From an uncultured Thermoanaerobaculia bacterium (GTDB lineage: Bacteria; Acidobacteriota; Thermoanaerobaculia; Thermoanaerobaculales; Sulfomarinibacteraceae): a DNA stretch of 64,000 bases. The stretch is taken from positions 268 through 64,267 of the forward strand of contig CAYQTL010000011.1 in assembly GCA_964420405.1 (NCBI GenBank), read 5' to 3'. Positions 21,037-49,846 of the stretch are shown piece by piece. Under the pieces are notes generated by a model that was not told where the DNA came from, searched no databases, and saw only the letters and a list, made by a program, of their open reading frames with translations. A program made the translations under genes and the position numbers. Position 1 is the first letter of the stretch. The number at the start of each line of letters is the position of its first letter.

Positions 21037-21072
21037 CCGCACCGCGACCCGCGGGCGCCTGCGGAGCGGGTT

Positions 21073-21219
21073 CCGATCCCGGACCGGGTCCCGATCCCGA
21101 TGTCGTGGACCGGGGGAGCCGGGCGACGCCGTACGCGTGCGTCCCGGCTCCCGGGCCGCCCGGCTCGCCTCCGTCGCTGGCCCGCGATGTCATCGGGATC
21201 GGGATCGGATGAGGGATCC
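21073..21219. repeat. Inverted GATC-hexamer arrays flanking an ~85-bp core
   Basis: Left arm ccgatcccggaccgggtcccgatcccgatg; right arm catcgggatcgggatcggatgagggatcc. The arms are reverse complements (cccgatcccgatg / catcgggatcggg). Confidence 0.85.
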
Positions 21220-21233
21220 GCGGCGTCGCGCGG

Positions 21234-25098: not shown

Positions 25099-25113
25099 CA
25101 AAGGACGGCTGAG

Positions 25114-31664: not shown

Positions 31665-32074
31665 GACGACGACTCCCCGCTGCGGCGGACCTCCGCCGCG
31701 CGCCGGTCCTGGCGCTCGCGGCGGAGCTTGAACTCGACGTACTCGTGGACCTCCTCGCGCGCCGCCGGGCTCAGCTCGCGCAGCATCTGCAGCATCTGCA
31801 TGTCGGCCTGGCTGAGGGGCTGGGCCGCCGGGCGGGCGGCCGGGGCCTCGTCGAAGAACTCGGAGATCTCGACCCCGAACACGCGCAGGATCCTGAAGAG
31901 GTTGTCGAGGGAGACGCGGTACTCGCCCTTCTCCATGCGCGACAGATCGGACTGTTGGATGCCGATTTGACGCGCCAGCTCCGCCTGGGTGAGCTGCCGC
32001 TGCTTGCGCAGCTTGCGCAGGCGGCTGCCGATGCTGGCGGCCTGCGGCACGGTCGGGGCGCTGCGTTGCGGCAT
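31661..32074 (-). CDS. XRE-family HTH transcriptional regulator with C-terminal extension
   Basis: Motif IGSRLRKLRKQRQLTQAELARQIGIQQSDLSRMEKGEYRVSLDNLFRILRVFG. Confidence 0.85.
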   Translation of the reverse strand: MPQRSAPTVPQAASIGSRLRKLRKQRQLTQAELARQIGIQQSDLSRMEKGEYRVSLDNLFRILRVFGVEISEFFDEAPAARPAAQPLSQADMQMLQMLRELSPAAREEVHEYVEFKLRRERQDRRAAEVRRSGESSS

Positions 32075-32327: not shown

Positions 32328-33182
32328 GTGACGCACGACAGCCGATGGCGACGGTACGGCCTGGCCTTCGCCCGCCTGCCGCTGGTCCTTTCCCGGCAGC
32401 GCTTCCTGCTCGCCCAGCTCGCCCGGCGCGCGTTCGCGGCGCGCCACGCCGGGCTCTACCTCGGGTGGCTGTGGACGCCGCTTTCGATCGTGGTCCAGTT
32501 CACCCTGTACCTGCTGGTGTTCTCGGTCATCCTGGAGCTCAAGGCCGAGAACCTTGGCATCGACCTTGCTAAGAGGGCGCCCGTGGGCTTCGGGGTGTTC
32601 CTGATCACCGGCATGGTGCCGTTCTTCGCCATCAACGACAGCGTCGTCCGGGCCGCGCGGGTGTTCCGCTCCCACTCGGCCCTGGTGCAGCGCATGCGGC
32701 TGCCGGCGGAGGTGCTGGTGGTGGGCGACATGGTGGGCGGGCTGGTCCACCACCTGGCGTCCCTGGCGCTGCTGGTGGGCTACTGCGTCTGGCAGGGGCA
32801 CATGATACCCTCGGACGCCGGCTGGCTGGCGCTCGCCTTCGTGGTGCTGTCGGTGTGGATCCTGGGCGTCGGGCTGGCGGTGGCGGTGGCCGGCGCGGTG
32901 CTGCCGGACCTGCCGGAGGTGCTGCAGCTCGGGCTGCAGGTGGCGTTCTTCGGGGCGCCGATCGTCTACCCGCTGGCGGCGGTCCCCGAGGGGCTGCTGC
33001 GGACGGCGGTGGAGCTGAACCCGGTGACCCAGATCGTGTCGCTGTGGCGCACGGCCCTGGTCGGCGCCGAGCCGCCGTCCGTGGCCGCGATCGCGGCGGT
33101 GGCGGTGATCGGCGTCGGCATCCTTGCGGTGGGTGCGGCGGCGCTCGAGCGGTGGCGGTACACCATCGCCGACCTGCTGTGA
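32328..33182 (+). CDS. ABC-2 type transporter permease (Wzm/TagG-like)
   Basis: GTG 32328 lies 7 nt after GGAGG. Motif LGWLWTPLSIVVQFTLYLLVFSVIL and 6 hydrophobic segments. The track start 31989 is rejected. Confidence 0.8.
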   Translation: MTHDSRWRRYGLAFARLPLVLSRQRFLLAQLARRAFAARHAGLYLGWLWTPLSIVVQFTLYLLVFSVILELKAENLGIDLAKRAPVGFGVFLITGMVPFFAINDSVVRAARVFRSHSALVQRMRLPAEVLVVGDMVGGLVHHLASLALLVGYCVWQGHMIPSDAGWLALAFVVLSVWILGVGLAVAVAGAVLPDLPEVLQLGLQVAFFGAPIVYPLAAVPEGLLRTAVELNPVTQIVSLWRTALVGAEPPSVAAIAAVAVIGVGILAVGAAALERWRYTIADLL

Positions 33183-33278: not shown

Positions 33279-35057
33279 ATGATCGCGAAGCTGAGCAGCC
33301 CTGACGGTCGGCGACCGCACGGCATCGAGGACGAGATCACACCGGGATCCGGAGCCGCTCCGCGCTGGACGGGAGCGGTCCTGACGGCGGTCCTGTGCGC
33401 TGTGCTGGCGGCGGCGCCCGGCACAACGTGGGCCGACGAGGGCCCGGAGGAGACCGGTCAGGAGCCGGCCGCGGCCGAGACGCAGGCACCGGCAGCCGGC
33501 GAGGAGAACCCGCCCGTCGGCGGGGTCGACCTGGACATCATCCGCAAGGCGACCGAGCGCTCGTGGTCCGGCTTCCTCGAGCGCTGGCTGACGCCGATCC
33601 CGGTGCCGAAGAAGTCCGTGGTCTACCTCGAGGACGGCTACGCCCTGTCCCACCCGGCGGTGTCGTACAAGATGGAGGTCGTCCGCGAGGAGGGGGACAC
33701 CGTCTGGCTGCGCGGCCTGCCGCCGGAGGATCCCGAGTCGCCGCTGCATCCGCTCTGGCTGCAGCGCCAGCACAGCGAGATCCTCACCCAGGGCATCCAG
33801 GACTGGACCGCCGAGTACGGTGAGCCCTACTTCTTCCTCGACTTCACCGCCGAGCTGGTGCCGCCGCCGTTCGTCGACGGTTTCGAGTTCGTACCGACCG
33901 CAGAGGACCTGCCCAAGCGGGGCGGCTGGCAGATGAACATGGTCGTGGCGGACATGAACGGCGACGGCCACGCCGACCTCGTCCACCCGCCGACCCGCAA
34001 GGGCGAGGGACGGCCGTTCGTCTTCCTCGGTGACGGGGACGGCGGCTTCGAGCCGTGGGACGGCCAGATGTACTCGCGCAGGGTCCCGTTCGACTACGGC
34101 GGCGTGGCCGTGGCCGACTTCGACGGCGACGGCCACCGGGACATCGCCCTCGCGATCCACTTCAAGAGCCAGTGGGTGATGTACGGCGACGGGACCGGTG
34201 ACTTCACGCGGGTCGTCCGGCTGCCGAGCCCCGACCCGCGGATCACCTCGCGGGCGGTCACCGCGGCCGACTTCGACGGCGACGGCCGGGTCGACCTGGC
34301 GTTCCTGGCCGAGCTCGACCTCGACCTCGGCACCAACCTCCGCATCGACGACTCGCCGACGGTGTGGATCGCCCGCAACGGTCTCGACGGCTGGGGGCTC
34401 GTCAGCAAGGGGTTGGCCGGCCACCCGGTCATCGGCGACACGATCCGGTCCGCCGACTTCAACGGCGACGGCCTGCCGGACCTCGTGGTGTCCTCCAACG
34501 CCAACAACTACCGCGACCTGCTGCTGCTCAACCGGCCCGACGAGCCGTGGAAGTCGGCCGGCAGCCGGCTGGTGCTCGCCAGCGGGTACCACTTCGACAT
34601 CGCGCCGACCGTCGAGGGCGAGGGCGACGACGAGCAGGTGGTGGCCTATGCGACCTTCTCCCAGTTCCTCAAGGTCCTCGGCGACAACCAGACCCGCACC
34701 GGGATCATCCGGTACGTGGTCGGCGAGGAGGGCTTCGAGGCGCAGGGCGATCCGGTGGTGATGGACGACCAGCGGTACAACCCCTACTACCGGGTCACTT
34801 CCGGTGACATCAACGGCGACGGCCTCACCGACCTGGTGGCCGGCCGGAAGGGCGGCGGCCTGGAGGTCTACCTGCAGGTCTCGCCGGGAACCTGGTACCG
34901 CGAGCAGGCGCCCGAGCTCGCCGCCACCGGACGTCCCTACGACCTGCACCTCGTGGACCTCGACGGCGACGGGCGCGACGATCTGCTCGGCTGCTTCGCG
35001 GAAACCGAGAAGCACCCCGGCGGGGTGTGGGTGTGGATGACCCGTCCGAGGTCTTGA
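33279..35057 (+). CDS. Secreted FG-GAP/VCBS repeat protein
   Basis: Signal/TM segment AVLTAVLCAVLAAAPGTTWA. Six Ca-binding-type repeats (DMNGDGHADLV, DFDGDGHRDIA, DFDGDGRVDLA, DFNGDGLPDLV, DINGDGLTDLV, DLDGDGRDDLL). Confidence 0.85.
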   Translation: MIAKLSSPDGRRPHGIEDEITPGSGAAPRWTGAVLTAVLCAVLAAAPGTTWADEGPEETGQEPAAAETQAPAAGEENPPVGGVDLDIIRKATERSWSGFLERWLTPIPVPKKSVVYLEDGYALSHPAVSYKMEVVREEGDTVWLRGLPPEDPESPLHPLWLQRQHSEILTQGIQDWTAEYGEPYFFLDFTAELVPPPFVDGFEFVPTAEDLPKRGGWQMNMVVADMNGDGHADLVHPPTRKGEGRPFVFLGDGDGGFEPWDGQMYSRRVPFDYGGVAVADFDGDGHRDIALAIHFKSQWVMYGDGTGDFTRVVRLPSPDPRITSRAVTAADFDGDGRVDLAFLAELDLDLGTNLRIDDSPTVWIARNGLDGWGLVSKGLAGHPVIGDTIRSADFNGDGLPDLVVSSNANNYRDLLLLNRPDEPWKSAGSRLVLASGYHFDIAPTVEGEGDDEQVVAYATFSQFLKVLGDNQTRTGIIRYVVGEEGFEAQGDPVVMDDQRYNPYYRVTSGDINGDGLTDLVAGRKGGGLEVYLQVSPGTWYREQAPELAATGRPYDLHLVDLDGDGRDDLLGCFAETEKHPGGVWVWMTRPRS

Positions 35058-35300: not shown

Positions 35301-36842
35301 ATGAAGAGGTTTCTGACCCTGGCGCTCGTGGCCGCGCTCGGACTGGGCGTGAGCAGCGCCGTGTACGCGAACGTGTGCGCGTTCGACCCGGTGCCGGCGG
35401 CGACGCTGCTGTTCCCGTTCGTGGCGTACGACTACGACGGCGGCTTCGGCGGCGACACCACGATCTTCTCGATCACCAACGTGTCGGCCGAGGCGCAGAT
35501 CGTCCACGTCACCCTGTGGACCGACTACTCGATCGCGATCCTCGACTTCAACATCCTGCTGACCGGCTACGACACCCAGCGGGTGAACATCCGCGACATC
35601 CTGGCCGACGGCCAGCTGCCGGTCACTGTGATCGCGACCCACGCGCAGACCCCGGGCAACGAGGGCGTGTTCCCCGACGGCCCGGTGTCGCCTGACAACG
35701 ACAACGGCGGCGGCGGTGCGAACACCGGTTCCTGGATCCAGGGCCTGCTGGAGTTCCCCGAGTCGACCAACGACCTCGGCAGCGACCGCTGCTCGACCAG
35801 CGACCAGGCCTACCCGGGTCTGTACGCCGACAACCTGATCCCGGCGACCCAGCTCGCGGCGTTCCAGGACTGGCTGCAGGCCAGCCAGACCGCGTCGCGC
35901 TCGCACGCCAACGACTGCAGCCCGCCGTACGGCCCGGCCTTCCAGATCAGCCCCGACCCGTGGTTCTACCTCCGGGATGAGACGGATCCGACCTGGATGT
36001 ACATCACGGCCGACGTGGTCGAGACCTGCAACCTCACCTTCCCGGACAACCCGGCGTACTACGTCGACGAGATCCGGTACGACAACGTCCTGATCGGCGA
36101 CGTGACCTGGCTGAACAACGACGAGCGGTTCTCCGAGGTGGACAACGCGATCCACATCGAGGCCGACATCGACCTCGCCCAGGTCGCCACCATCAACGCC
36201 GACAACGACCGTCCGGTGTCCTTCTACCACCGGTACTCGCAGAACGCGCAGTTCTCCGACTACCGCGAGCCGCTGCCGACCGCCTGGGCGTTCCGCTACC
36301 AGGGCGCGCAGGACGACGGCACCCTCGACACGCTCATCCGGGCGTGGAAGGGCAGCTCGCTGTGGCCGACCGTGTACGACCTCGAGTTCAACCCGCCCAA
36401 CGTGGGCCCGGACTCCTTCATCGCGAGCAACTGCTACGCGTACACCTACTACGCCTGGGATGAGGACGAGGACGTCATCACCGTGACCGACTTCCCGTGG
36501 TCGCAGCCCGGCGGCGGCCTCATCATCCCGAACCTCCTGCCGCTCGAGACCCAGGAAGTCTCGGTCGACGAGTTCGACACCGTCGACACCTTCGGCTGGA
36601 TGCTCTTCGTGTGGCCGGCGTCCAACTACGTCGGCATCCCCGGCGCCCCGGCGCCGCCGGACTTCTACCAGACCTGGATGGGCGTGAAGTACGTGAAGGC
36701 TGGCGACTACTCCGCCGCGACCAGCGGTGCGGTGATGGCCAACTTCAACTGCTTCTCCGACCAGGTGCTGCCGAACCTCGGCATCGACTACAACTACGTC
36801 GACCAGTTCGGCTACGTGTCCTCGCCGTCGCTCTTCGAGTAA
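35301..36842 (+). CDS. Secreted hypothetical protein (513 aa), no family recognised
   Basis: AAGGAG RBS and signal peptide MKRFLTLALVAALGLGVSSAVYA. GC3-rich host-like codons. Own promoter and terminator. Confidence 0.8.
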   Translation: MKRFLTLALVAALGLGVSSAVYANVCAFDPVPAATLLFPFVAYDYDGGFGGDTTIFSITNVSAEAQIVHVTLWTDYSIAILDFNILLTGYDTQRVNIRDILADGQLPVTVIATHAQTPGNEGVFPDGPVSPDNDNGGGGANTGSWIQGLLEFPESTNDLGSDRCSTSDQAYPGLYADNLIPATQLAAFQDWLQASQTASRSHANDCSPPYGPAFQISPDPWFYLRDETDPTWMYITADVVETCNLTFPDNPAYYVDEIRYDNVLIGDVTWLNNDERFSEVDNAIHIEADIDLAQVATINADNDRPVSFYHRYSQNAQFSDYREPLPTAWAFRYQGAQDDGTLDTLIRAWKGSSLWPTVYDLEFNPPNVGPDSFIASNCYAYTYYAWDEDEDVITVTDFPWSQPGGGLIIPNLLPLETQEVSVDEFDTVDTFGWMLFVWPASNYVGIPGAPAPPDFYQTWMGVKYVKAGDYSAATSGAVMANFNCFSDQVLPNLGIDYNYVDQFGYVSSPSLFE

Positions 36843-36865
36843 GCGACACCACGAGCGAGACCACA

Positions 36866-36895
36866 GCGGGGCGGCCTTCGGGCCGCCCCGCTTTT
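36866..36895 (+). terminator. Intrinsic terminator
   Basis: gcggggcggcc-ttcg-ggccgccccgc followed by tttt. Confidence 0.85.
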
Positions 36896-37070: not shown

Positions 37071-37100
37071 TTGACAGCGGGAAACGGGCCTCCGTATAGT
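37071..37100 (+). promoter_or_regulatory. sigma70-type promoter of the giant gene
   Basis: TTGACA (37071-37076), 18 nt, TATAGT (37095-37100). GGAGG at 37109-37113. Confidence 0.65.
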
Positions 37101-37118
37101 GGAGCCGTGGAGGTGAGC

Positions 37119-40100
37119 ATGGCGTGCTCCCATTCCCCCGGATCGAGCTTCCTCCGGCGTCTCGCGTGGGCGTCGGTCCTGATCATGGCGGGGACGTCGG
37201 TCCCTGCGGCCGCCCAGGCGCCGTGTCTGGACTGGGTCGACGACCTGCACAACTCGTCGGACAACTGCCTGTCGCACCCGGCGATCCCCCGCTACCTCAT
37301 GAGCCACCTGCTCGACTGGAACGGGACGCCGTACTACGTGGTCGACAACGGCAACAACCTCGAGTTCTGGGACATCGGCACCAACCCGCTGGATCCGGTG
37401 CGGTGGGAGTTCAGCTCGTTCGGGGTCCCCAACCAGGGCGACTCGGACTACGACCTGCTCACCTTCTCGGTCTGCGACGGCTGCCGCTTCGGCACCGCGA
37501 GCTACAAGCTCGGCCTGGTCCTGTTCGACCTCGGCACCGGGACCCGGCCGCGGGTCGAGGGGAGCACCTTCCTGCAGGGCGCCCCGATCGGCGCGTTCAC
37601 CTTCGAGTCGGGCAGCTCGCAGTACGTCATCACCAAGGGGCTGCCGGACAGCTGCACCGGCGGCGGCTCGACGCTGTACGAGGTCTCCCGCGACGGCGCC
37701 GACGTCGTCCTCGACCGGCTCAGCTGCGTCGAGCTGCCCGGCGGGGCCACCTTCCAGCCGGCCGGTGGCGTCTCGATCGACGGGCCCGACGGCCAGTACC
37801 TGTACCTCGCCAAGACCACCTCCCCGATCTCGGTCTTCAAGGTGATCCCGGCGGGCGGCTCCATCAGCCTCCAGTACGTGGACGTGGGCGGCGACCCCCG
37901 GCTGCGGGCGGTGATGCAGTTCGGCAAGGGCATGTCCTACGACGAGTCCCGCGACCTGCTCGCGACGGCCTACGAGAGCCGCGGCCTGACGTTATGGGAC
38001 GTGTCCAACCCGGCGAGCCCCCAGGAGATCTGGTCGGATGCGAACCTCGTCGCGAGCCGGGTGGCCCTCGGGCCGGGCTTCATGCATGTCACGGGCCCGA
38101 GCCTGGGTGACGTCTACTCCTACGACATCTCCAACCTCTCCAACCCGGTGCTGGTGGACCCCGACTTCTGGGACCTCGACAACAGCTGGAACGAGAACTG
38201 CTCGCTCGCCACCAACTACGACGGCATCTTCCACCCGACGGAGCCGATCGCCTACGTGGCGCGGTTCGCCAAGGACCAGATCATCGACTACCGGCCGTGC
38301 GGCGGCGGCGTCGCCCCGACCGCGGCCGTGTCGCTCGAGCCCGCGATCGCCTTCCCGGGCGACACGGTGACGGTCGGCAACGTCTCGCTGGGGGCCTTCA
38401 CCCGCTCCGCGGTGTGGGTCACCAGCGGCGACGATCCCCACGGCACGGTGGTCGGAGGCTCGGACGACCTGTCGGCCGGGACCCCGTCGTCGCGGGTGTT
38501 CCCGCTCCCGCAGGACCTCCAGCAGGGCCTCGGCTTCTGGGCGCACGTGGCGGTCGAGTCGGACGAGTTCCCGTACACCCCGGGCGCGACCCCCGACCAG
38601 ATCGACTCGGTGACGGTGGGCATCGACCGCACCCCCGAGGTCGGCATCGACCAGAGCGACCCGGCGCCGATCACCGGCGAGACGGTGACGTTCACGGCCG
38701 TCGCCGAGGGCAATCCACCCTCGGACGCCTACCTGTGGACCGTGACCGAGCCCGGCGGCCAGCCCACGGCGCTGGACATCGTCGGACCCCAGGTGCAGGT
38801 GGAGCTCTCCGAGAGCGGGGAGTGGGCGGTCGACGTCAGCGTGAGCTACCTCCACCAGGGGCTGACGGGAGGGCCGTACGTGGCCACCGCCGGCCTCGAC
38901 CTCGACATCAGCTCGGTCGCCGCGGCCCTCGAGGTGCTGCCGGCGAGCCCGCTGCACAACGAGCCGATCACGCTCAACAACCTCTCGGCCGTGGCCTCCG
39001 GCGCGACCCTCGACCTCGACTTCGACGTGCTGAACGCCTCCGGGACGAGCGTCGTCAACGAGCTCTCGTTCTGCGACGGTGCCGGCACCATCTCCACCGA
39101 CTGCGAGATCCCGGCCGAGACCCTGACGCCGGCGACCTACACCTTCCAGCTCACGGTCACCAACACCGACACGGGCGACCTCTCCACCGCCTCCGAGCAG
39201 GTCCAGGTGCAGGACGGCAGCCTGCAGCCGGTGATCCAGGTGTCCGACGCGACCCCCGACATCGGCAAGGTCATCACGTTCACGATCGGCGGCGTGCCGT
39301 CGGTGGAGCGAACCACCTGGAACTTCGGCGGCCCGGGCTGCTCGCCCTACGCCGTCACCGAGGTCTGCGAGCCCGGGATCTTCGGCAACTGCCTCGCCCA
39401 GACCTACTCCTACGCCACCGCGGGGGCCAAGACGGCCCAGGTGACCATTCGCTACAACAGCAACGACTTCGGCCCCTACCAGATCAACCTCGACGTCAAC
39501 AACACCGGCAGCTGCACCGGCGGCGGCGGCGGTGGTGGTGGCGGCGGCGGCGGCGGGACCTGCACCTACACCATCAGCCCGACGTTCGGCTTCGCCGACG
39601 CCCCCGGCGGCAGCGGGGCCTTCTCGCTCTCCACCCAGAGCGGGTGCGGCTGGAACGCCTCGTCGAACCGCAGCTGGCTCACCGTCAGCCCGACCAGCGG
39701 CAACGGCTCGAGGACCATCAGCTGGCAGGCGGCGTCGAACCCGGCCGAGGAGCGCACCGGCACCATCACCGCCGGCGGCAAGAGCTATACCGTCACCCAG
39801 GGCGGCCAGCCGCAGTGCGAGTACACCCTGTCGGCGACCACCAGTACCGTCTCCGCGACCGCCGGCACCGGCACCGTCACGGTCTCCACCACCTCGGGGT
39901 GCGAGTGGACCGCCATCTCCAGGGACGGCTGGATCCGGGTGACGTCGCCGGCCGACGGCAGCGGCGTCGGTTCCGGCACGGTGCGCTTCGCCTACGACGA
40001 GAACCCGTGGCAGGGTGAGCGCGAGGGGATCCTCGAGATCGCCGGCAACACCTACACCCTGGTCCAGAACCCGGTGATCCCGGCCAACTTCCAGATCTCG

Positions 40101-42767
40101 AAGACCAACCCGGACATCGGCGAGACGGTGACCTTCACGGTCGACCCGCGGCTCGAGGTGGCCAGCTGGGACTTCGGCGGCCCCAACTGCGACGAGGAGC
40201 CGGCGTTCGTCGACTGCGACACCATGCCCCAGTCCATGTGCCAGACGATCCAGTGGAGCTGGACCGAGCGTGGCCCGAAGACCATCACCATGGAGACCGC
40301 CGACGGCGACGTGGCGGAGAAGACCGTCTGGGTCCAGAACGCGGGCACGTGCCCGTGCAAGGACTCGGCGCCGACGGCCTCGTTCGAGCTCTCGCCCGAG
40401 ATCGCCGAGTACGGTGACACCGTGACCTTCACCGCCACCACCGGCGGCATCCCGTCCGCCAAGGTGCTGGCGCTGGACTTCCGCTGGGATCCCGTCGAGC
40501 CGAGGATCGGCCAGGGCGTCGACTTCCGGGTCGAGGGCGTCGCCGGGATCGACGAGGTGCGGTGGAACTTCGGCGGCTCCGGCTGCTCGCCGTTCACCCA
40601 GACCGCCACCTGCACACCGGGCCTCTTCAGCGACTGCACCCTCGAGCAGTACCAGTACGCGACCGCCGGCGCCAAGACCGTCACCCTGACGGTGATCGCC
40701 GACGGCCAGACCTTCGGCCCCGTCTCCCAGAGCCTCACCGTCCTCAACGAGGGATCGTGCTCCGGCGGCGGCGGCGGTGGCGGCGGCGGTGGTGGCGGCG
40801 GCTGCACGTACTCGCTCGCGCCGACCTCCGCCAGCTACCCGGCCGCCGGAGACACCGGCACCTTTGACGTCACCACCCAGAGCGGCTGCGCGTGGACCGC
40901 GTCCTCCAACCGGTCCTGGGCCCGGATCACCTTCCCGGACCCGCCCTCGGGCAGCGGCTCCAGCACCGTCGAGTACGTGGTGGACCCCAACACCGGCCTG
41001 CAGCGCAGCGGTGCCATCACGATCAGCTACACGGGCGGCTCGAAGACCCACACCTTCAGCCAGGGCGCCACCGGCGGCGGTGGCGGCGGTGGCGGTGGCG
41101 GTGGCGGGGGTGGCGGTGGCGGTGGCGGGACCACCGGCGACTCGAACCCCGACGAGTGGCATTGGACGATCTGGCGCAACGGCTCGGTGGTCGTGACCTC
41201 CGACCAGCCGATCTTCCAACACGAGTTCACCCTGCCCGGCGTGTACGACGTCGAGCTCGAGGTGGTGAACTGCGCGGGCTCCGACACCGCTACCGGTACC
41301 TTCGAGGTACTGCCCCCTCCGATCACCGCGGCGGAGGACTACGTGGTGCCGTCGGCCGTCCACACGGCGGGCCTCAACGACACCCTGTGGAAGACGGACC
41401 TGCGGCTGTACAACCCATGCGGGGAGGCTGCCAACATCCGCATCCGCTACCTTCCGGAGGACGTCAACAACGCCAGCGGCCAGATCAGCTACGTCAGAAA
41501 CGACACCCTGTCGCCCAACGGCACCAAGGTGTACGACGACGTGGTCGACCTGTACCCCCTCGACGGCGACGACCACAAGGGCTCGCTGCGGATCACCTTC
41601 CCCGGCGCCGAGACCTGCCGGCCGATGATCATGTCGCGGACCTACAACGACACCCCCTACGGCTCGTTCGGCCAGTTCGTGCCGGCGGTGCCGGTGCTGC
41701 CGTCGGAGGGCGGCGAGGTCCACCTCACCGGGCTCGTCCACAACCTGTTCTACCGGACGAACATCGGCTTCGCGAACCTGTCCGAGGAGGACGTCTGGGG
41801 AATCGAGATCGACGTCCTCGACCAGGACGGCAACCAGCTCGGCAGCACCGTCACCCGGATGGTGCCCGGGTTCTCCAGCGCGCAGGTCGTCAAGATCGCC
41901 GAGGCCGCCGGCGTCACCGGCAACCTGAACGTGTTCTCGGTGAGGATCCGGACCTCGAGCCCGGACATCACGGCCTACGCCTCGGTGGTGGACAACATCA
42001 CCGGCGACCCGGTCTACCTGACGCAGTCGGACACCGTCGACGAAATGGTGTACGTGCCGGGCGTCGCCCACCTGCCGGGGTTCAACGACTCCCGCTGGCG
42101 GACCGACTTCGCCCTCTACAACCCCCACGACTCCGACATCGACGTGCTGGTCCACTACGTGCCCGACGCGCCCCTCGACGAGCCTCCGTTCGACATCGAG
42201 ATCGTCGGCATGTACCCGGGCGTCGAGCGCTCCTGGATCGACGTCCTCGACACCCTCGCCAGCGAGCAGGACACGAAGGGCTACTTCGTGGTGTCGGCGA
42301 TGGACGACACGCCGCTGCCCCAGGTGGCGGCCCGGACCTACAACCTGTCGCTGTCGGGCGGAACCTTCGGCCAGAACCTGAAGGTCTACGGCTCGCGGGA
42401 CCTGATCCAGATCGGCGAGGTGGCGATCCTGCCCGGGATCTCCAACTCCTCCGACCGCGACACCGGCTTCCGGACCAACCTCGGCCTGCTCAACACCGGC
42501 ACGGACACCGCGATGGACGCCGAGATCACGCTGTACGGCGGCTCGGGCCAGGTGCTCGCCACCATGTACCAGCAGCTCGCCGCCGGCGAGTTCAAGCAGA
42601 TCAACAACATCTTCCAGGCCGCCGGCGTCGGCGACCTCGACGTCCAGGGCTCGATCGAGGTCCGGATCACCACAGGTGGTCCGGCCGCGGTCTACGCCTC
42701 GGAGGTCGACAACCGCACCCAGGACCCGATCCTGATCCCCGCCGAGCGGCTCCCGCCACTCGAGTAG
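37119..42767 (+). CDS. Giant secreted multidomain protein (1,882 aa): LVIVD-like propeller, Ig/PKD-like modules, BACON-like domains, poly-Gly linkers, unassigned tandem C-terminal domain
   Basis: Signal peptide MACSHSPGSSFLRRLAWASVLIMAGTSVPAAAQA. LVIVD-like strands (LEFWDIGTNPLDPV, LTLWDVSNPASPQEIW, VYSYDISNLSNPVLV). BACON-like CTYTISP...GCGWNASSNRSWLTV. Gly13, Gly13 and Gly19 tracts. Uniform GC3-rich codons. Confidence 0.85.
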   Translation: MACSHSPGSSFLRRLAWASVLIMAGTSVPAAAQAPCLDWVDDLHNSSDNCLSHPAIPRYLMSHLLDWNGTPYYVVDNGNNLEFWDIGTNPLDPVRWEFSSFGVPNQGDSDYDLLTFSVCDGCRFGTASYKLGLVLFDLGTGTRPRVEGSTFLQGAPIGAFTFESGSSQYVITKGLPDSCTGGGSTLYEVSRDGADVVLDRLSCVELPGGATFQPAGGVSIDGPDGQYLYLAKTTSPISVFKVIPAGGSISLQYVDVGGDPRLRAVMQFGKGMSYDESRDLLATAYESRGLTLWDVSNPASPQEIWSDANLVASRVALGPGFMHVTGPSLGDVYSYDISNLSNPVLVDPDFWDLDNSWNENCSLATNYDGIFHPTEPIAYVARFAKDQIIDYRPCGGGVAPTAAVSLEPAIAFPGDTVTVGNVSLGAFTRSAVWVTSGDDPHGTVVGGSDDLSAGTPSSRVFPLPQDLQQGLGFWAHVAVESDEFPYTPGATPDQIDSVTVGIDRTPEVGIDQSDPAPITGETVTFTAVAEGNPPSDAYLWTVTEPGGQPTALDIVGPQVQVELSESGEWAVDVSVSYLHQGLTGGPYVATAGLDLDISSVAAALEVLPASPLHNEPITLNNLSAVASGATLDLDFDVLNASGTSVVNELSFCDGAGTISTDCEIPAETLTPATYTFQLTVTNTDTGDLSTASEQVQVQDGSLQPVIQVSDATPDIGKVITFTIGGVPSVERTTWNFGGPGCSPYAVTEVCEPGIFGNCLAQTYSYATAGAKTAQVTIRYNSNDFGPYQINLDVNNTGSCTGGGGGGGGGGGGGTCTYTISPTFGFADAPGGSGAFSLSTQSGCGWNASSNRSWLTVSPTSGNGSRTISWQAASNPAEERTGTITAGGKSYTVTQGGQPQCEYTLSATTSTVSATAGTGTVTVSTTSGCEWTAISRDGWIRVTSPADGSGVGSGTVRFAYDENPWQGEREGILEIAGNTYTLVQNPVIPANFQISKTNPDIGETVTFTVDPRLEVASWDFGGPNCDEEPAFVDCDTMPQSMCQTIQWSWTERGPKTITMETADGDVAEKTVWVQNAGTCPCKDSAPTASFELSPEIAEYGDTVTFTATTGGIPSAKVLALDFRWDPVEPRIGQGVDFRVEGVAGIDEVRWNFGGSGCSPFTQTATCTPGLFSDCTLEQYQYATAGAKTVTLTVIADGQTFGPVSQSLTVLNEGSCSGGGGGGGGGGGGGCTYSLAPTSASYPAAGDTGTFDVTTQSGCAWTASSNRSWARITFPDPPSGSGSSTVEYVVDPNTGLQRSGAITISYTGGSKTHTFSQGATGGGGGGGGGGGGGGGGGGGTTGDSNPDEWHWTIWRNGSVVVTSDQPIFQHEFTLPGVYDVELEVVNCAGSDTATGTFEVLPPPITAAEDYVVPSAVHTAGLNDTLWKTDLRLYNPCGEAANIRIRYLPEDVNNASGQISYVRNDTLSPNGTKVYDDVVDLYPLDGDDHKGSLRITFPGAETCRPMIMSRTYNDTPYGSFGQFVPAVPVLPSEGGEVHLTGLVHNLFYRTNIGFANLSEEDVWGIEIDVLDQDGNQLGSTVTRMVPGFSSAQVVKIAEAAGVTGNLNVFSVRIRTSSPDITAYASVVDNITGDPVYLTQSDTVDEMVYVPGVAHLPGFNDSRWRTDFALYNPHDSDIDVLVHYVPDAPLDEPPFDIEIVGMYPGVERSWIDVLDTLASEQDTKGYFVVSAMDDTPLPQVAARTYNLSLSGGTFGQNLKVYGSRDLIQIGEVAILPGISNSSDRDTGFRTNLGLLNTGTDTAMDAEITLYGGSGQVLATMYQQLAAGEFKQINNIFQAAGVGDLDVQGSIEVRITTGGPAAVYASEVDNRTQDPILIPAERLPPLE

Positions 42768-42796
42768 GACCAGCGGGCCGCGACGCAGAGCCACCA

Positions 42797-42824
42797 GGGG
42801 CGGCCCCGCGGGGCCGCCCCTTTC
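42797..42824 (+). terminator. Intrinsic terminator of the giant gene
   Basis: ggggcggcc ... ggccgcccc followed by tttcc. Confidence 0.75.
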
Positions 42825-43535: not shown

Positions 43536-44354
43536 TCAGAGCTCGCCCTCCTCGATCGCCTCGAGCCGCTCGGGGTGGACGAAGAGCGACGGGTCGAACG
43601 GGCCGAGCACCTCGGGCTCGATCTCGACGATCCGGTTGTGGCCGGTCGGCCCGCCCCCGACCGCGAACCCCTCCATGAGGATCTGGGTCGGCAGCCGGAC
43701 ACCGTCGACGCTCTTCGTCCGCAGCACCTTGTAGCGCATGCCTTCGTCGACCACGTCCTGCATCGTCTCGGGGGGCGTGACGGCGACCGTCAGCAGCTCG
43801 AGGGTCTCCTGGTCCACCTCGAGGGCCCAGCTTCCGCCGGCCATGCTCGGAGCGAGGAAGAACCCCGGCGGGATCGTGATCTGCGCCTGCCAGGTGGGCC
43901 GGCCCTGGCTCGTCGACGCCCTCACCTCGCCGAGGGCCACCCCGTCCATCTCGAGAGAGAACGGCAGCAGCATCGGGAAGACCTTCTGGTTCACGGTGCC
44001 GCGGCTCATCTTCGCCGCCTGCGGCCGCTCGTCGACCTCGCCCTTGACCAGCGCCCACGAGTCGCCCTCGTTGCGCACCACCGTGGCGCCGTTGCGGAAC
44101 TCGAGCCGCGCGTTGTCCGGGTTCGGCATGTACACGGTGAGGTCGAGCAGGGTCTGGAACTGGCGCCCGTCGGCCAGCGTCTCCTGCTCCTCGACGCCGA
44201 ACCGGACGGTACCCAGCCTGGCCAGCGCGTCGTGGCCGCCGGCCGCCTCGACGATCCTCTCCACCAGCTCCTCCGGGCTCGGCGGCGCAGCCAGCACCGG
44301 CGCCGCGACCACCATCGCGAGCACTGCCGTCATCGTCCACCGGCGGTAGTGCAT
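43536..44354 (-). CDS. Secreted hypothetical protein (272 aa)
   Basis: ATG 44354 gives the signal peptide MHYRRWTMTAVLAMVVAAPVLAAP. The N-terminal EELVERIVEAAGGHDALARL pattern is reminiscent of LolA-like/DUF secreted proteins, but this is weak. Confidence 0.65.
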   Translation of the reverse strand: MHYRRWTMTAVLAMVVAAPVLAAPPSPEELVERIVEAAGGHDALARLGTVRFGVEEQETLADGRQFQTLLDLTVYMPNPDNARLEFRNGATVVRNEGDSWALVKGEVDERPQAAKMSRGTVNQKVFPMLLPFSLEMDGVALGEVRASTSQGRPTWQAQITIPPGFFLAPSMAGGSWALEVDQETLELLTVAVTPPETMQDVVDEGMRYKVLRTKSVDGVRLPTQILMEGFAVGGGPTGHNRIVEIEPEVLGPFDPSLFVHPERLEAIEEGEL

Positions 44355-44455
44355 GTCGTCTCCTCCCTTTCTGCGGTGCCGTTCCGGCACCTTTCCGTCA
44401 CGGCCGGCGAGTATAAAGCAATCGTCGTGCCACCGCTGTGGTACTCTCCCGCCGC

Positions 44456-45670
44456 ATGCGCAGCGCCGGGTTCGGGCACGCCGTCGTCGTCGACAACGTC
44501 CACAAGTGGTACCGGGTCTACGCCTCCCCGTTCGAGCGGGTCAAGCGGGTCGTGGGCGCCCCCAGCCGCCACCTGGACTTCCGCGCCCTCGACGATGTGT
44601 CGTTCGCCATCCGTCGTGGCGCGGCGGTCGGCGTCATCGGCGAGAACGGCGCCGGCAAGTCCACCCTGCTCAAGCTGATCGCCGGCACGACCCGGCCGAC
44701 CGCGGGGACGGTCGAGGTCGAGGGCTCGGTGGCGGCGATCCTCGAGCTCGGGGCGGCGTTCCATCCGGAGTTCACCGGCCGCGACAACGCGATCCTGTAC
44801 GGCGCGATGCTCGGCATCGACCGTCCGGACATGGAGCGGCGCCTCGGCGACGTGTTCGGCTTCGCCGAGCTGGGCGAGTTCGTCGAGCACCCGATCAAGA
44901 GCTACTCCACCGGCATGCAGATGCGGCTCGCCTTCGCCGTCGCGACCCACGTCGATCCCGACGTCCTGGTGGTCGACGAGGCGCTGGCGGTGGGCGACGG
45001 CTACTTCCAGAAGAAGTGCGTCGACCGGATCCTCGAGATCCGCGAGCGCGGCACCACGATCCTGTTCTGCTCCCACTCCATGTACTACGTGTCCATGTTC
45101 TGCGAGCGCGTGATCTGGCTGCGCTCGGGGCGCGTCGTGGCCGACGGTCCGCCCCAGGAGGTGGTGACGGCCTACGAGGAGTTCCTCGTCAACCGCGAGC
45201 GCAGGCGGCTCGAAGGCGGCGCCGGGGAGGGAGCCGAGGCGCGGCCGGAGCGGCCCGGGCAGGCGGCGAGGATCGTCGCGCTGCGGGTGCTCGACGGCGA
45301 CGACCGCGAGCTCGGCGGCTACCGCCCCGGCGAGCCGGTGACGGTGGAGATCGAGTGGGAGGCGGCCGACCCTGACGCCGAGCTGCACCTGGGGGTCGCC
45401 CTGGAGCGGGGCGACGGCATGCGCCTGGTCGGGGTGGCGACGTTCCTGGACGGTCTGCCGCCGCTCCGCGGCGGCGGGATCCGCAAGGCCCGGGTCCGCT
45501 TCCCCGGCGTGCCTTTGGCCAAGGGGCACTACGCCGTCACCGGCTACCTGTTCGACCGCTCGGGGCTGCACATCTGGGACGAGGTGGTCGTGCCCGACCG
45601 GCTCAAGCCGGCCTCGGAGAAGTGGCAGCCGGCGGTGCTGCAGCTCGACCACCGGTGGGAGACGCCGTGA
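44456..45670 (+). CDS. ABC transporter ATP-binding protein, Wzt/TagH-like with ~160-aa C-terminal extension
   Basis: Walker A GENGAGKSTLLKLI, signature YSTGMQMRLAFA, Walker B VLVVDEALAVGD. Alternative start GTG 44438. Confidence 0.88.
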   Translation: MRSAGFGHAVVVDNVHKWYRVYASPFERVKRVVGAPSRHLDFRALDDVSFAIRRGAAVGVIGENGAGKSTLLKLIAGTTRPTAGTVEVEGSVAAILELGAAFHPEFTGRDNAILYGAMLGIDRPDMERRLGDVFGFAELGEFVEHPIKSYSTGMQMRLAFAVATHVDPDVLVVDEALAVGDGYFQKKCVDRILEIRERGTTILFCSHSMYYVSMFCERVIWLRSGRVVADGPPQEVVTAYEEFLVNRERRRLEGGAGEGAEARPERPGQAARIVALRVLDGDDRELGGYRPGEPVTVEIEWEAADPDAELHLGVALERGDGMRLVGVATFLDGLPPLRGGGIRKARVRFPGVPLAKGHYAVTGYLFDRSGLHIWDEVVVPDRLKPASEKWQPAVLQLDHRWETP

Positions 45671-46899: not shown

Positions 46900-47490
46900 T
46901 CAGCGCTCGCCATCTCCGGATGGCCTCTGGTGGATGAGCAGGAGGTTCCGCACGTAGATGATCCACCCGGTGCTCTGGCCGAGCACCCCGACGATGTCGC
47001 GCCGCCAGACGAAGTAGACGAGCAGCATCGAGGCTCCGCCGAGGCTCATCCACCAGAAGCCCACCGGCACGACGGACCGCCGGCGGTGCTCCGACACGAG
47101 CCACTGCAGAACCATCCGCCCTGTGAACAGCACCTGGCCCGTCAGCCCGAGCAGCACCCACAGGACTCCCACCGGGGAGGTGATGTTCAGGATCCGGTAC
47201 AGCCACTCCCGCCGGCGGGAATCCCGCTCCAGCCGCGCCACGAACGCGTCGGGGGTGAGTCGCTCGGTGGTCCCGTCCTCCCGCACGAGGAGCAACCACC
47301 CGCGTCCCGCGGCATCGGACTCGAGCCAGACGCGGCGGGTCTCGTCGGGCAGCGGCTCGAGCTGGAGCCGGATCCGGGTCGCCACCTCCGGTTCGGCGGC
47401 GTGGCGCGCGATCGCGACGGCGGCGCCCAACGTGACGGCCGCCGCCGCGAGCGCCAGCAGCGACACCGCCACGACGCGTGGCGGGGTCAC
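46900..47490 (-). CDS. Lipid-A-biosynthesis N-terminal (LAB_N) domain membrane protein
   Basis: Motif LGLTGQVLFTGRMVLQWLVSEHRRRSVVPVGFWWMSLGGASMLLVYFVWRRDIVGVLGQSTGWIIYVRNL. Confidence 0.8.
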   Translation of the reverse strand: MTPPRVVAVSLLALAAAAVTLGAAVAIARHAAEPEVATRIRLQLEPLPDETRRVWLESDAAGRGWLLLVREDGTTERLTPDAFVARLERDSRRREWLYRILNITSPVGVLWVLLGLTGQVLFTGRMVLQWLVSEHRRRSVVPVGFWWMSLGGASMLLVYFVWRRDIVGVLGQSTGWIIYVRNLLLIHQRPSGDGER

Positions 47491-48218
47491 CGCAGCCTCC
47501 AGCGGAGCCGGCGGTCCTGCAGCCAGCGTACGCCGAGGGCGTCCCGCAGACCCCGGAACGCGCGGTCAAGGGTGCCGTACTTGCTGCGGCCGTGGAGTCG
47601 GGGGGCGTGGCGGACCGGGACCTGGAGGACCGTGAACCCCTCCATCCGCAGCAGCGTCGGCAGGAAGCGGTGGGCGCCGTCGAACATCCGCACCGCGCGG
47701 ATCGCGTCGGCGCGGAGCACCTTGATCGGGCAGCCGGTGTCCACCACGTCCTCCCGCGTCAGCCGGTTGCGCACGTGGTTGGCGAACCAGGACGAGAACC
47801 TCTTCCAGCGGTCGTCGTGGCGCTCGACCCGCACCCCCACGACGGCGTCGACACCCTCCCGCTCGAGCACCCCGAGAAGACCCGGCAGGTCCTCGGGAAA
47901 GGTCTGCAGGTCCGCGTCGAGGATCGCCACCAGCCGCCCGCGGGCGTGCCGGAATCCGGCGTCGAGGGCGGCGGACTGGCCGCTCCGGGCCTCGAGGTGC
48001 AGCACCCGCAGCCGCGGTTCGTCGGCCCCGAGCTCGTCCAGACGGTCGCCGGAGCCGTCTCCGGAGCCGTCGTCCACCGCCACCAGCTCCCAACGGACCC
48101 CCGCGCCGTCCAGCGCTGCGCGCACCCGCCCGACGAGGGCGTCGACGCTGCCCCGCTCGTCGTACACCGGGGTCACCACCGACAGCTCGGGCCCGTCCTG
48201 GTCGTCCGGGGGGCTCAT
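47487..48218 (-). CDS. GT2 polyprenyl-phosphate glycosyltransferase-like (ArnC/DPM1-like)
   Basis: Motifs LSVVTPVYDERGSV, AVDDGSGDGS and LDADLQ. ATG 48218 overlaps the glpD stop by 4 nt. Confidence 0.82.
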   Translation of the reverse strand: MSPPDDQDGPELSVVTPVYDERGSVDALVGRVRAALDGAGVRWELVAVDDGSGDGSGDRLDELGADEPRLRVLHLEARSGQSAALDAGFRHARGRLVAILDADLQTFPEDLPGLLGVLEREGVDAVVGVRVERHDDRWKRFSSWFANHVRNRLTREDVVDTGCPIKVLRADAIRAVRMFDGAHRFLPTLLRMEGFTVLQVPVRHAPRLHGRSKYGTLDRAFRGLRDALGVRWLQDRRLRWRLR

Positions 48219-49846
48219 CGGGCGGAGGATAGCACCCCCCGAACGGTCCAGCCCTCGAGGGCGTCCTCGAACCGGTCGAGCTCGTCGGCGGTTCGGCCGG
48301 CGTCCCATCCGAGCTCGAGGGCGAGCTGCTCCGCCGCCGGCCCGGCGAGCTCCCGCGCCAGCTCAGGTCGCCACATCCCGAGCCGGATCCGACGCAGCAG
48401 CAGGTCCTCCAGATGCAGCACCGCGTTCCAGCGGGCGTGCGCCCGGATCTCCGCGGCGCACACGTCGACGTCCTCATTCACCGGGGCGAGCTCGGCCGGA
48501 TCCCGCGCCAGGGCGACGGCGGACCAGGCGAGGCCGGCCAGGCGGCGGGCCATGCCGGTGGCGACCTCGGTGTGGACGCCCGCCGCTTCCCGCAGCCGCC
48601 GCTCCAGGTCGGCCGGCGCCAGGTCGCCCACCGGCGTGCCCTCGGTGGCGCACGGCGCCGCATGCCGCGACCGGTCCTCGGGCAGCATCCTGAGGACCGC
48701 GTCCACCGCCTGCTCGGCGGTGCTGCGCCAGGTCGTGAGCTTGCCGCCGGCCACCGACAGGGCGCCGTCCTCCTCCCACAGGTCCTCCTCCCGGGTCGCC
48801 TCCGACGGGGTGTCGGCGTGGGTGTCGAGGATCGGCCGCAGCCCGGCGTATGCGGCGCGCACGTCGGTGGCGTCGATCGGCCGCCGTGGGAACGCCGCCG
48901 TCACCGCCCGCAACAGGTATCGCACCTCGTCGGCGGTCGGCCTGGGGTCGTCCAGGTCGCCGCCGTGGTACAGGTCGGTGGTGCCCACCAGGACGCCCTC
49001 CGGGTGGGGGATGAGGAACACCGGCCTGCCGTCGTCGGGCGAGGCGAGAGTGAGCGCCGCGCTCAGCGGCAGGCGCTCGGACGGCAGCACCAGGTGGGTG
49101 CCCCGGGAGGGCCGCAGCCGCGCACCGTCGAGCCCCAGGCGGCCGCGGACGACGTCGGTCCACACGCCGCCGGCGTTGACCACCACCGCCGCCTCGAGGA
49201 CGAGCTCGGCGCCGCTCTCGAGGTCGCGGATGACCACGCCCGCGATCTGTCCGGCCGCGTTCCGGCGCGCGCCGAGCAGCTCGGCCCGGGTCAGGATCCC
49301 GGCGCCGTAGCGGTGGGCGGTGGCCGCCACTGCCAGCGTGAGGCGGGCGTCGTCGGCCATGGCGTCGCCGAACTCGAGCGCCCGGTCGAGACCCTCGGTG
49401 CGCAGCCCGGGAGCCAGCGCGCGGACCGCACGGCGGTCGAGCTGGGTGTGCTTGTCGGGCCGGCCCGTGAGCTGGTCGTACATCCACAGCCCCACCTCGA
49501 TCTGCCAGCCGGGGGTGGCGTCGCCGTGGTAGGCCGGGTACAGGAACCGGATCGGGTGCACCAGGTGGGGGTCGAGGGCCACCATCCGGTCACGTTCACG
49601 GCACGCCTGGCGCGTGATCCGCAGCTGCATCTGCTTGAGGTAGCGCAGCCCGCCGTGGATCAGCTTCGACGACCGGGAGGACGTGCCGGACGCGATGTCG
49701 CCCCGCTCCGCCAGGATCACCCGCAGGCCCCGCTGGGCGGCGTCGAGAGCGATGCCGCAGCCGGTGATGCCGCCGCCCACCACCACCACGTCGAAGCGGC
49801 CGCGGTCGGCGAGCGCCAGCCCGCGCCAGCCCGGATGGAACATCAC
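48215..49846 (-). CDS. glpD: FAD-dependent glycerol-3-phosphate dehydrogenase
   Basis: Motifs DVVVVGGGITGCGIALDAAQRGLRV and GTSSRSSKLIHGGLRYL. Confidence 0.88.
   Translation of the reverse strand: MMFHPGWRGLALADRGRFDVVVVGGGITGCGIALDAAQRGLRVILAERGDIASGTSSRSSKLIHGGLRYLKQMQLRITRQACRERDRMVALDPHLVHPIRFLYPAYHGDATPGWQIEVGLWMYDQLTGRPDKHTQLDRRAVRALAPGLRTEGLDRALEFGDAMADDARLTLAVAATAHRYGAGILTRAELLGARRNAAGQIAGVVIRDLESGAELVLEAAVVVNAGGVWTDVVRGRLGLDGARLRPSRGTHLVLPSERLPLSAALTLASPDDGRPVFLIPHPEGVLVGTTDLYHGGDLDDPRPTADEVRYLLRAVTAAFPRRPIDATDVRAAYAGLRPILDTHADTPSEATREEDLWEEDGALSVAGGKLTTWRSTAEQAVDAVLRMLPEDRSRHAAPCATEGTPVGDLAPADLERRLREAAGVHTEVATGMARRLAGLAWSAVALARDPAELAPVNEDVDVCAAEIRAHARWNAVLHLEDLLLRRIRLGMWRPELARELAGPAAEQLALELGWDAGRTADELDRFEDALEGWTVRGVLSSAR

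Follow-up and report, generated by a model that had tools for sequence, protein, structure and literature searches.

Bacteria of the phylum Acidobacteriota are among the most abundant in soils and sediments, and to our knowledge their cell surfaces are almost unstudied. The window analysed here, a stretch of 64,000 nucleotides from an uncultured Thermoanaerobaculia bacterium of this phylum, contains an open reading frame at 37119..42767 of the plus strand (stop codon included; ATG at 37119, TAG at 42765-42767) for a secreted protein of 1,882 aa, which is called the giant protein below and on which all residues are numbered. Orthologues of this protein are known. The sequence-only reading of the window had proposed exactly this secreted frame, and it was confirmed: the product begins with a signal peptide and the gene has a G+C content at third codon positions (GC3) of 0.96, like the other real genes of this window (~70% G+C). 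New in this locus are the orthologous family of the giant modular protein, a gene cassette that splits wzm from wzt, and a domain family of ~10,000 clusters that is absent from Pfam and NCBIfam, whereas the folds of the parts (propeller, PKD, BACON and CARDB-like sandwich) are already known. The locus thus offers three handles, namely a six-gene cassette in which an exporter is split by four genes for secreted proteins, the family of the giant protein, and the family of its C-terminal (CT) domains, for which a confident model was obtained.

The giant gene was found at a constant place in the cassette. In at least 15 loci from different metagenome-assembled genomes (MAGs) the order of the genes was Wzm, an FG-GAP protein, a protein of ~510 aa of no known family, the giant protein, a 272-aa protein of no known family on the opposite strand, and Wzt. 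The first member in the window is a Wzm-like ABC-2 permease (32400..33182, plus strand, start approximate), matched by Pfam ABC2_membrane and NCBIfam KpsM/Wzm and syntenic in at least 12 loci. It is followed by an FG-GAP repeat protein with an N-terminal hydrophobic segment (33279..35057, plus strand; Pfam FG-GAP_3, E 4e-37; 49% mean identity across loci) and by a secreted 513-aa protein (35301..36842, plus strand), which is always encoded directly upstream of the giant gene. The latter belongs to no Pfam or NCBIfam family and, with a mean identity of 58%, is better conserved than any other member of the cassette. Downstream of the giant gene lie a secreted 272-aa protein without a family match (43536..44354, minus strand; syntenic in at least 12 loci) and a Wzt-like ABC ATPase with a Wzt_C glycan-recognition domain (44438..45670, plus strand; Pfam ABC_tran and Wzt_C, the latter at 5e-12, NCBIfam TagH/Wzt; also syntenic). 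The wzm and wzt genes are normally adjacent in ABC-transporter-dependent glycan export; here they are separated by four genes, the same four in many genomes. The wider region is devoted to glycan biosynthesis, with a GT4 gene before the cassette and GNAT, ArnC-like GT2 and LAB_N genes after wzt. The window is chromosomal, and nuoH/L/M/N and other housekeeping genes are present in it.

The full architecture of the giant protein was recovered at 34-46% identity in P0001 and P0003-P0006, and P0002 is truncated at the N-terminus. Its module order is shared by at least 15 Acidobacteriota MAG loci on independent contigs, with varying numbers of BACON and PKD modules, so that an architecture which had looked like a one-off is in fact conserved module for module. 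These loci were assigned mostly to Thermoanaerobaculales/Thermoanaerobaculia, the others to Holophagae, Sulfomarinibacteraceae and one bin labelled Methylomirabilota. In public sources the relatives are called no more than 'PKD repeat protein', 'CARDB domain-containing protein' or 'hypothetical', and a look-up of the exact sequence gave no entry for the giant protein itself. A full-length sequence search of the PDB with the giant protein returned poly-Gly artefacts only (scFv linkers and parvovirus VP1), and the claim that this combination of domains is not found in any characterised protein stands, as no full-length match to a characterised or solved protein was obtained.

Mean identities over 12 syntenic orthologues revealed a conservation gradient along the chain. 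The N-terminal propeller is the least conserved module (32%), the Ig, PKD and BACON modules of the stalk range from 39 to 46%, the short PKD domain before the C-terminal pair reaches 48.5%, and the first domain of this pair, CT1, is the most conserved module of all (50.9%); the second, CT2, reaches 42.7%. Paralogues that share only the N-terminal two-thirds carry another repeat propeller in place of the CT pair and are encoded elsewhere in the genome. Such CT-less paralogues (P0007-P0012), as well as stand-alone propellers of ~400 aa, end in FxDGFE[ST]GDxxxW followed by ~5 residues; this tail has the appearance of a short tag or sorting motif at the C-terminus, and no known motif was matched by it.

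The C-terminal pair consists of CT1 (41319..42026, plus strand, aa 1401-1636) and CT2 (42027..42764, plus strand, aa 1637-1882), the latter recognised by the CT profile with E 6.5e-83. Self-BLAST delimited the tandem at aa 1403-1634 and 1639-1873, in agreement with the two copies of ~235 aa that had been described from the sequence. The two copies are distinct subtypes, each conserved separately. Neither matched Pfam, NCBIfam or PDB sequences, and a CT profile compared with the PDB gave no match either. The AlphaFold2 (AF2) model, built on an alignment of 87 sequences, is all-beta with ~16 strands (pLDDT 92.6). A single real match came from a Foldseek search of the PDB with this model: TM1070 of Thermotoga, an uncharacterised protein (1nc7; target-normalised TM-score 0.71, probability 1.0), which spans half of a CT domain; each CT half superposes on TM1070. 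An hhalign comparison shows the two halves to be homologous (probability 95%, E 3.9e-8), and both carry the strand motif [WY]RT[DN]LxLxN. In a Foldseek search of viral structures only generic sandwiches were found (TM-score <= 0.32). The 480 C-terminal residues are accordingly modelled as four CARDB/TM1070-like sandwiches in two fixed double units. CT is an unannotated family of a fold that is already known, and the novelty first attributed to the pair was not upheld: it is a duplicated CARDB/TM1070-like sandwich that recurs in ~10,000 clusters at 50% identity.

With CARDB (PF07705) the CT copies of the giant protein scored 10.2 bits (E 0.93), below the cut-off of 22.7, and DUF5719 (PF18986) was not matched by them. 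Some distant members of the CT family pass CARDB in the second half of the domain and reach DUF5719 marginally, and one member is called 'CARDB domain-containing protein' by NCBI. Judged by these profile comparisons, CT is related to CARDB/DUF5719 at the superfamily level, short of membership. The likeness to CARDB, DUF5719 and TM1070 lies in the superposition of each half on 1nc7 and in the CARDB matches of some members; CT stands apart from them through its fixed unit of two sandwiches, invariant motifs of its own and, usually, an arrangement in heterotypic pairs. We know of no function for CARDB, DUF5719 or TM1070, and no mention of DUF5719 was found in the literature. The invariant motifs are [WY]RT[DN]LxLxN, SRTYN, GTxGQ and AYASVVDNxTGDP, and ~25 polar residues are near-invariant even across very distant members (H, D, N, R-T-x-N, G-Q, R-T-N and D-N-x-x-G-D-P). 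An assignment of CT to the ester-bond/isopeptide adhesin domains was considered and rejected: by eye the CT alignment contains no motif of the HxDxxDxxQ type, which we take to be that of these domains, and the one such structure in the Foldseek results had a TM-score of 0.17.

An exhaustive HMM search with a profile of 15 CT copies retrieved 9,974 cluster representatives (50% identity) at E <= 1e-3 and 3,478 at E <= 1e-30. Two CT copies were present in 142 of the 147 best representatives. Of these 147, 98 end with the pair, 29 carry it close to the N-terminus and 20 have it internally. The passengers vary and include PKD, BACON, LVIVD or Kelch propellers, FGE-sulfatase-type domains and S8 peptidases. 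A portable pair with such varied passengers behaves like an anchoring or targeting module. A PKD domain followed by a CT domain is a common arrangement among the relatives; nothing was learned from the genes around P0070, a stand-alone PKD-CT protein. In locus L003 a 665-aa PKD protein with a CT-type domain (20867-22864, plus strand) is encoded ~6 kb downstream of the giant gene of P0006. CT-domain proteins may be present several times per genome.

The end of the chain carries no known sorting signal, as had been stated from the sequence: PEP-CTERM, LPXTG, T9SS Por_Secre_tail, GlyGly-CTERM and others gave no Pfam or NCBIfam match at E up to 1, and the C-terminus ...DPILIPAERLPPLE contains no hydrophobic helix. 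RTX, HemolysinCabind and VCBS were not matched in the giant protein either, and it possesses a signal peptide, unlike the RTX/type I giant adhesins.

At the opposite end, a Sec-type signal peptide was read from the sequence (37119..37217, plus strand, aa 1-33, ...PAAAQA|PC). It has no lipobox, and an equivalent is present in all homologues, whose N-terminal segment ends in AQ followed by a conserved Cys. Twin-arginine export was dropped as a candidate route, since the RR of the signal peptide is not kept in the orthologues. The signal peptide is followed by a seven-bladed, disulfide-rich LVIVD-type beta-propeller (37218..38318, plus strand, aa 34-400), for which AF2, Foldseek and Pfam agree. 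The sequence-only reading had recognised LVIVD-like propeller strands; the fold was confirmed, whereas the length of about 430 aa has to be reduced to ~365 aa. The AF2 model (43-sequence alignment) has 28 strands and a pLDDT of 93.3 and superposes on seven-bladed propellers with a Foldseek probability of 1.0 and TM-scores of 0.55-0.65. When the propeller was scanned alone, Pfam LVIVD (PF08309) was matched with 22.5 bits (cut-off 20.2) and a single repeat was recognised, as against only 16.4 bits in the scan of the full-length protein. LVIVD matches 5 of 13 members of the propeller family; ~45 close relatives have no precomputed Pfam domain at all, and remoter ones are annotated as LVIVD proteins, some of which also match the SBP56 family. 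Eight conserved Cys and the motifs GDSDYD and CDxCRYG characterise the subfamily. LVIVD repeats were first described in Methanosarcina surface proteins in 2004 (PMC2447325), in the one pertinent paper that a literature search for LVIVD brought up. The weak above-threshold match, the propeller fold and the LVIVD annotation of the remoter relatives connect the giant protein with these surface proteins, but its propeller is a distinct disulfide-rich subfamily in which one Pfam repeat is recognised.

Between the propeller and the C-terminal pair lies a series of small sandwich modules. Three Ig/PKD-like beta-sandwiches (38319..39215, plus strand; aa 401-505, 506-600 and 601-699) are conserved one-for-one across orthologues, and their Pfam matches are sub-threshold only (Ig_3, PKD and K319L-like_PKD at E 0.009-0.08). 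They are followed, on the same strand, by three Cys-rich modules at 39216..39518 (aa 700-800), 40071..40358 (aa 985-1080) and 40464..40763 (aa 1116-1215), located by self-BLAST at aa 697-799, 982-1078 and 1113-1210. These W[ND]FGG modules contain an insertion with three Cys between a WDFGDG-like and an HTY-like motif plus a terminal Cys, so that the alignment shows four conserved Cys. The copies of the giant protein itself remain below the Pfam threshold (best PKD_4 score 16.7 bits versus 27; E 0.0078 for the third copy). Pfam PKD/PKD_4 match 8-10 of 23 orthologous Cys-rich modules, with a best E of 3.2e-9, and the best PDB matches of a profile of the module are PKD domains of proteases and collagenases. 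At the family level, these profile matches support the assignment of the modules to PKD domains carrying an insertion rather than to a new module type. The conserved Cys, eight in the propeller and four in each Cys-rich PKD module, point to disulfides.

BACON domains 1 and 2 (39558..40070, plus strand; aa 814-898 and 899-984) and domain 3 (40803..41072, plus strand; aa 1229-1318) were found by self-BLAST (aa 815-895, 900-983 and 1230-1316) and by Pfam, with 58.4 bits over three stretches for BACON_2 and 41.7 bits for BACON against a cut-off of 25 (PF13004/PF19190). The repeats listed in the sequence-only reading, namely three Cys-rich modules, three BACON domains, three poly-Gly tracts and two C-terminal copies, are thus all present, and self-BLAST agrees with them, but two elements had been missed. 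One is a short PKD domain directly before the C-terminal pair (41130..41318, plus strand, aa 1338-1400), which scores 25.1 bits with Pfam PKD (cut-off 23.5) and covers profile positions 32-80 only. The other is a partial PKD-like remnant or linker of ~35 aa (40359..40463, plus strand, aa 1081-1115), whose sequence is like that of the opening strands of the PKD modules and which has a counterpart in P0002, P0004 and P0011.

The poly-Gly tracts are encoded on the plus strand by (GGY)n repeats. Tract 1, (GGY)13, lies at 39519..39557 and tract 2 at 40764..40802 (13 Gly and 39 nt each), and tract 3 lies at 41073..41129 (19 Gly, 57 nt). The poly-Gly spacers, described from the sequence as Cys-bracketed, are conserved only in part. 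The third keeps its position: the orthologous loci contain 9-25 Gly at the junction before the PKD-CT-CT block, mostly followed by DT[TS]PTE. The first two are replaced in other orthologues by GGS, GGGTT, Pro/Thr or short Gly linkers. The linkers at these two sites always lie between the terminal Cys of a PKD module and the first Cys of a BACON domain. Poly-Gly length ranges from 0 to 25 Gly between orthologues, and the repeat structure of the (GGY)n tracts suggests that their length may vary through in-frame slippage.

The scans for expression signals covered 9.6 kb, with shuffled sequence as the promoter background. A frame on the plus strand is already open from 37032, upstream of the ATG of the giant gene, which is preceded at a distance of 5 nt by a Shine-Dalgarno sequence GGAGG (37109..37113, plus strand, read directly from the sequence). 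The promoter that had been proposed for the gene corresponds to a sigma-70-like match, TTGACA-18-TATAGT (37071..37100, plus strand), which agrees at 11 of 12 positions and would leave a leader of only ~12 nt; three promoter-like sites were found in the scanned region and 0.2 were expected from the shuffles. The proposed terminator fared less well. A G+C-rich hairpin followed by UUU (42796..42824, plus strand) is a possible intrinsic terminator: it starts 28 bases past the stop codon, and its stem-loop at 42796-42821 has 11 bp of G+C and a folding energy of -29.6 kcal/mol (z = -2.3). It was, however, rejected by the strict terminator scan, as it is trailed by UUU only. The gene upstream of the giant gene is closed by another hairpin (36865-36892, z = -5.0). 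From these signals, a separate monocistronic transcription unit is plausible for the giant gene.

What these data suggest about function can be stated in graded form. Our favoured reading, which we hold tentatively, is that the giant protein may be a Sec-exported, non-enzymatic surface or matrix protein that works together with the glycan exported by Wzm/Wzt. A non-enzymatic role is suggested because all modules have binding or spacer folds and no catalytic family was matched. A link to the glycan is suggested because the giant gene keeps a constant place in the Wzm-Wzt cassette within a region of glycan biosynthesis. A polarity of base and head is suggested because conservation rises from the propeller to the PKD-CT1 region and the hinge before the PKD-CT-CT block is conserved. 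On this basis, we infer that the protein would be located at the cell surface and bind glycan. The base would consist of the short PKD domain and the two double-sandwich CT domains and would touch a conserved partner, most likely the surface glycan of the cell itself or else a member of the trio of co-conserved secreted proteins. Poly-Gly tract 3 would act as a free hinge, the BACON, PKD and Ig-like sandwiches would form a disulfide-stiffened stalk, and the fast-evolving seven-bladed propeller would be an exposed head that binds an external ligand.

The closest functional analogy, although one without sequence relationship, is provided by Bap1 and RbmC of Vibrio cholerae, matrix adhesins of modular build in which a beta-propeller is joined to domains that target glycans (PMC10102183, PMC11451748). 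The rbm genes of Vibrio are located in biofilm matrix clusters beside the vps polysaccharide clusters (PMC11451748). The giant protein shares with RbmC and Bap1 a secreted, modular design that unites a beta-propeller with surface-binding or glycan-targeting domains. In Vibrio, an eight-bladed propeller is accompanied by beta-prism lectin domains, whereas that of the giant protein has seven LVIVD-like blades followed by PKD, BACON and CARDB-like sandwiches, for which glycan binding is only predicted. The BACON domain has been suggested to be a membrane-bound spacer (PMC11216935), which fits a stalk role in the giant protein. BACON proteins are to 87% from Bacteroidota and usually carry the domain N-terminally behind a lipoprotein signal (PMC11216935), a context that is typical for BACON and does not define it. 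The giant protein resembles the BACON proteins of Bacteroidota and crAss-like phages (PF13004, PF19190) in the Ig-like sandwich and in being a multimodular extracytoplasmic protein, and differs from them in that its BACON copies are internal (aa 814-1318), alternate with PKD domains, come from Acidobacteriota and have no lipobox.

Several observations weigh against a glycan-associated surface protein of this kind. The spacer role proposed for BACON makes these domains weak evidence for glycan binding (PMC11216935). In a third of the representatives the CT pair is N-terminal or internal, so it does not qualify as a strict C-terminal anchor. CT has ~25 near-invariant polar residues, more than would be required of a passive sandwich, and these could belong to an active site. 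No route of secretion across the outer membrane and no known sorting signal were found in the Pfam and NCBIfam searches. Finally, the most divergent full-length relative, P0006 (L003/L015), is encoded at a locus outside the Wzm/Wzt cassette.

The last point, together with the location of the N-half paralogues elsewhere in the genome, is also what would be expected of a generic environmental adhesin that has no functional tie to the exporter and whose gene order reflects vertical descent within one Acidobacteriota class. The syntenic loci all come from related Acidobacteriota MAGs, so that synteny may partly be ancestry, and PKD, BACON and CARDB modules are common among adhesin-like proteins. 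The same four genes nevertheless split wzm and wzt in many genomes despite protein identities of 32-58%, and such a stable order at that divergence usually means co-function. A generic adhesin is thus a serious competitor, but a rather improbable one.

Exopolysaccharide loci often encode an enzyme that processes the polymer, and the giant gene is embedded in a glycan locus. Its product could accordingly be a glycan-processing enzyme in which the propeller or CT is catalytic (a lyase, hydrolase or modifying enzyme acting on the exported polymer) and the other modules serve for targeting and spacing. The invariant acidic and Cys motifs of the propeller (GDSDYD and CDxCRYG), the SBP56 matches of some of its distant relatives and the polar residues that CT retains in very distant members would all suit such an activity. 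No enzyme family was matched in Pfam, NCBIfam or the PDB, however, and the fold matches are generic WD40-type propellers and the uncharacterised sandwich TM1070. Moreover, the propeller is the least conserved module, which is unusual for a catalytic core, and the CT pair is appended to proteins that have enzyme domains of their own (S8 and FGE-sulfatase). An enzymatic function is therefore considered unlikely.

A more specific form of the favoured, glycan-associated reading concerns the CT pair itself. The unit formed by the short PKD domain and the CT pair could be an unrecognised but widespread cell-surface retention module of Acidobacteriota, by which passengers such as propellers, peptidases and FGE-type domains would be tethered through a flexible hinge to the Wzm/Wzt glycan, with the FG-GAP, 513-aa and 272-aa proteins as export or attachment machinery. 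We regard this proposal as distinctly doubtful. Glycan-anchored surface proteins are found with SLH domains on secondary cell-wall polymers, among T9SS cargo on A-LPS and in Caulobacter RsaA on the O-antigen. CT resembles these systems in being a portable module that holds varied passengers, and its position, its passengers and the glycan locus fit such a role; it has no homology to SLH, the T9SS C-terminal domain (CTD) or RsaA, and anchoring is here a hypothesis. If true, it would give the Acidobacteriota a functional counterpart of the SLH-SCWP (secondary cell-wall polymer) or T9SS-CTD-A-LPS anchoring and would explain how many of their large extracellular proteins are displayed. If the C-terminal unit is not a glycan anchor, the giant protein is one more uncharacterised surface protein of the PKD/BACON type.

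A subunit of an S-layer-like lattice or sheath, which would self-assemble through CT pairs and be anchored on an O-antigen-like glycan in the manner of glycan-anchored S-layers, is very unlikely. In its favour, the giant protein is a very large secreted protein of all-beta structure whose gene is linked to a surface-glycan locus, and the conservation of CT1 and CT2 as a heterotypic pair suggests a defined packing unit; but the poly-Gly hinges and the beads-on-a-string modules favour a flexible fibre over a lattice, and the numbers of BACON and PKD modules differ between orthologues. An assembly chimera, which the sequence-only reading had itself raised, or a pseudogene can be set aside almost completely: an assembler might in principle be led astray by the (GGY)n tracts, but the frame is intact with a uniform GC3 throughout, near-identical DNA repeats were not found and mis-assembly is not indicated because no DNA repeat other than these tracts exceeds ~71% identity, and the same module order was found again in at least 15 loci, on contigs that are independent of each other and come from many samples, so that sequence comparison leads us to regard this alternative as refuted.

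Further observations were made on the cassette and its surroundings. In L013, L016 and L026 the cassette genes, including the giant gene, are split over several frames, which reflects either sequencing indels of the assembly or pseudogenisation; P0047 and P0301 are fragments. An apparent 'Rosetta stone' case, in which a propeller protein (P0301) and a CT protein (P0047) seemed to be encoded by split genes on one contig, was rejected, as L026 is the same cassette with a frameshifted giant gene.

Two of the cassette proteins showed additional similarities. Residues ~387-414 of the FG-GAP protein gave short matches to NCBIfam XAC2610_fam and Pfam TcdB_toxin_midN, which probably represent a common Ca2+-binding loop motif. 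Residues 292-377 of the 513-aa protein showed weak similarity to VirB7 of Xanthomonas, a type IV secretion protein, and its relatives (6gyb_a, E 0.0024; 2l4w, E 0.0088).

Just upstream of wzm, a 137-aa regulator with an XRE-type helix-turn-helix (HTH) and a 300-aa TPR protein are encoded at 30765-32074 on the minus strand, and from their position the Wzm start listed at 31989 would be too far upstream. An HTH gene near the cassette was also found in L002 and L026, and a role of the XRE-HTH and TPR proteins as regulators of the cassette is possible. On the other side of the cassette, a small LAB_N membrane protein adjoins an ArnC-like polyprenyl-phosphate glycosyltransferase (46903-48308, minus strand), and in L001 a YfhO-like protein is encoded near this pair; the set resembles a three-component periplasmic glycan-modification system placed beside the exporter. 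Further upstream in the window, a 701-aa open reading frame (25099-27204, plus strand) belongs to no Pfam family and has a sub-threshold match to an OmpL47-type beta-barrel at its C-terminus; it is 58% conserved in L002, where it lies upstream of the GT4 gene.

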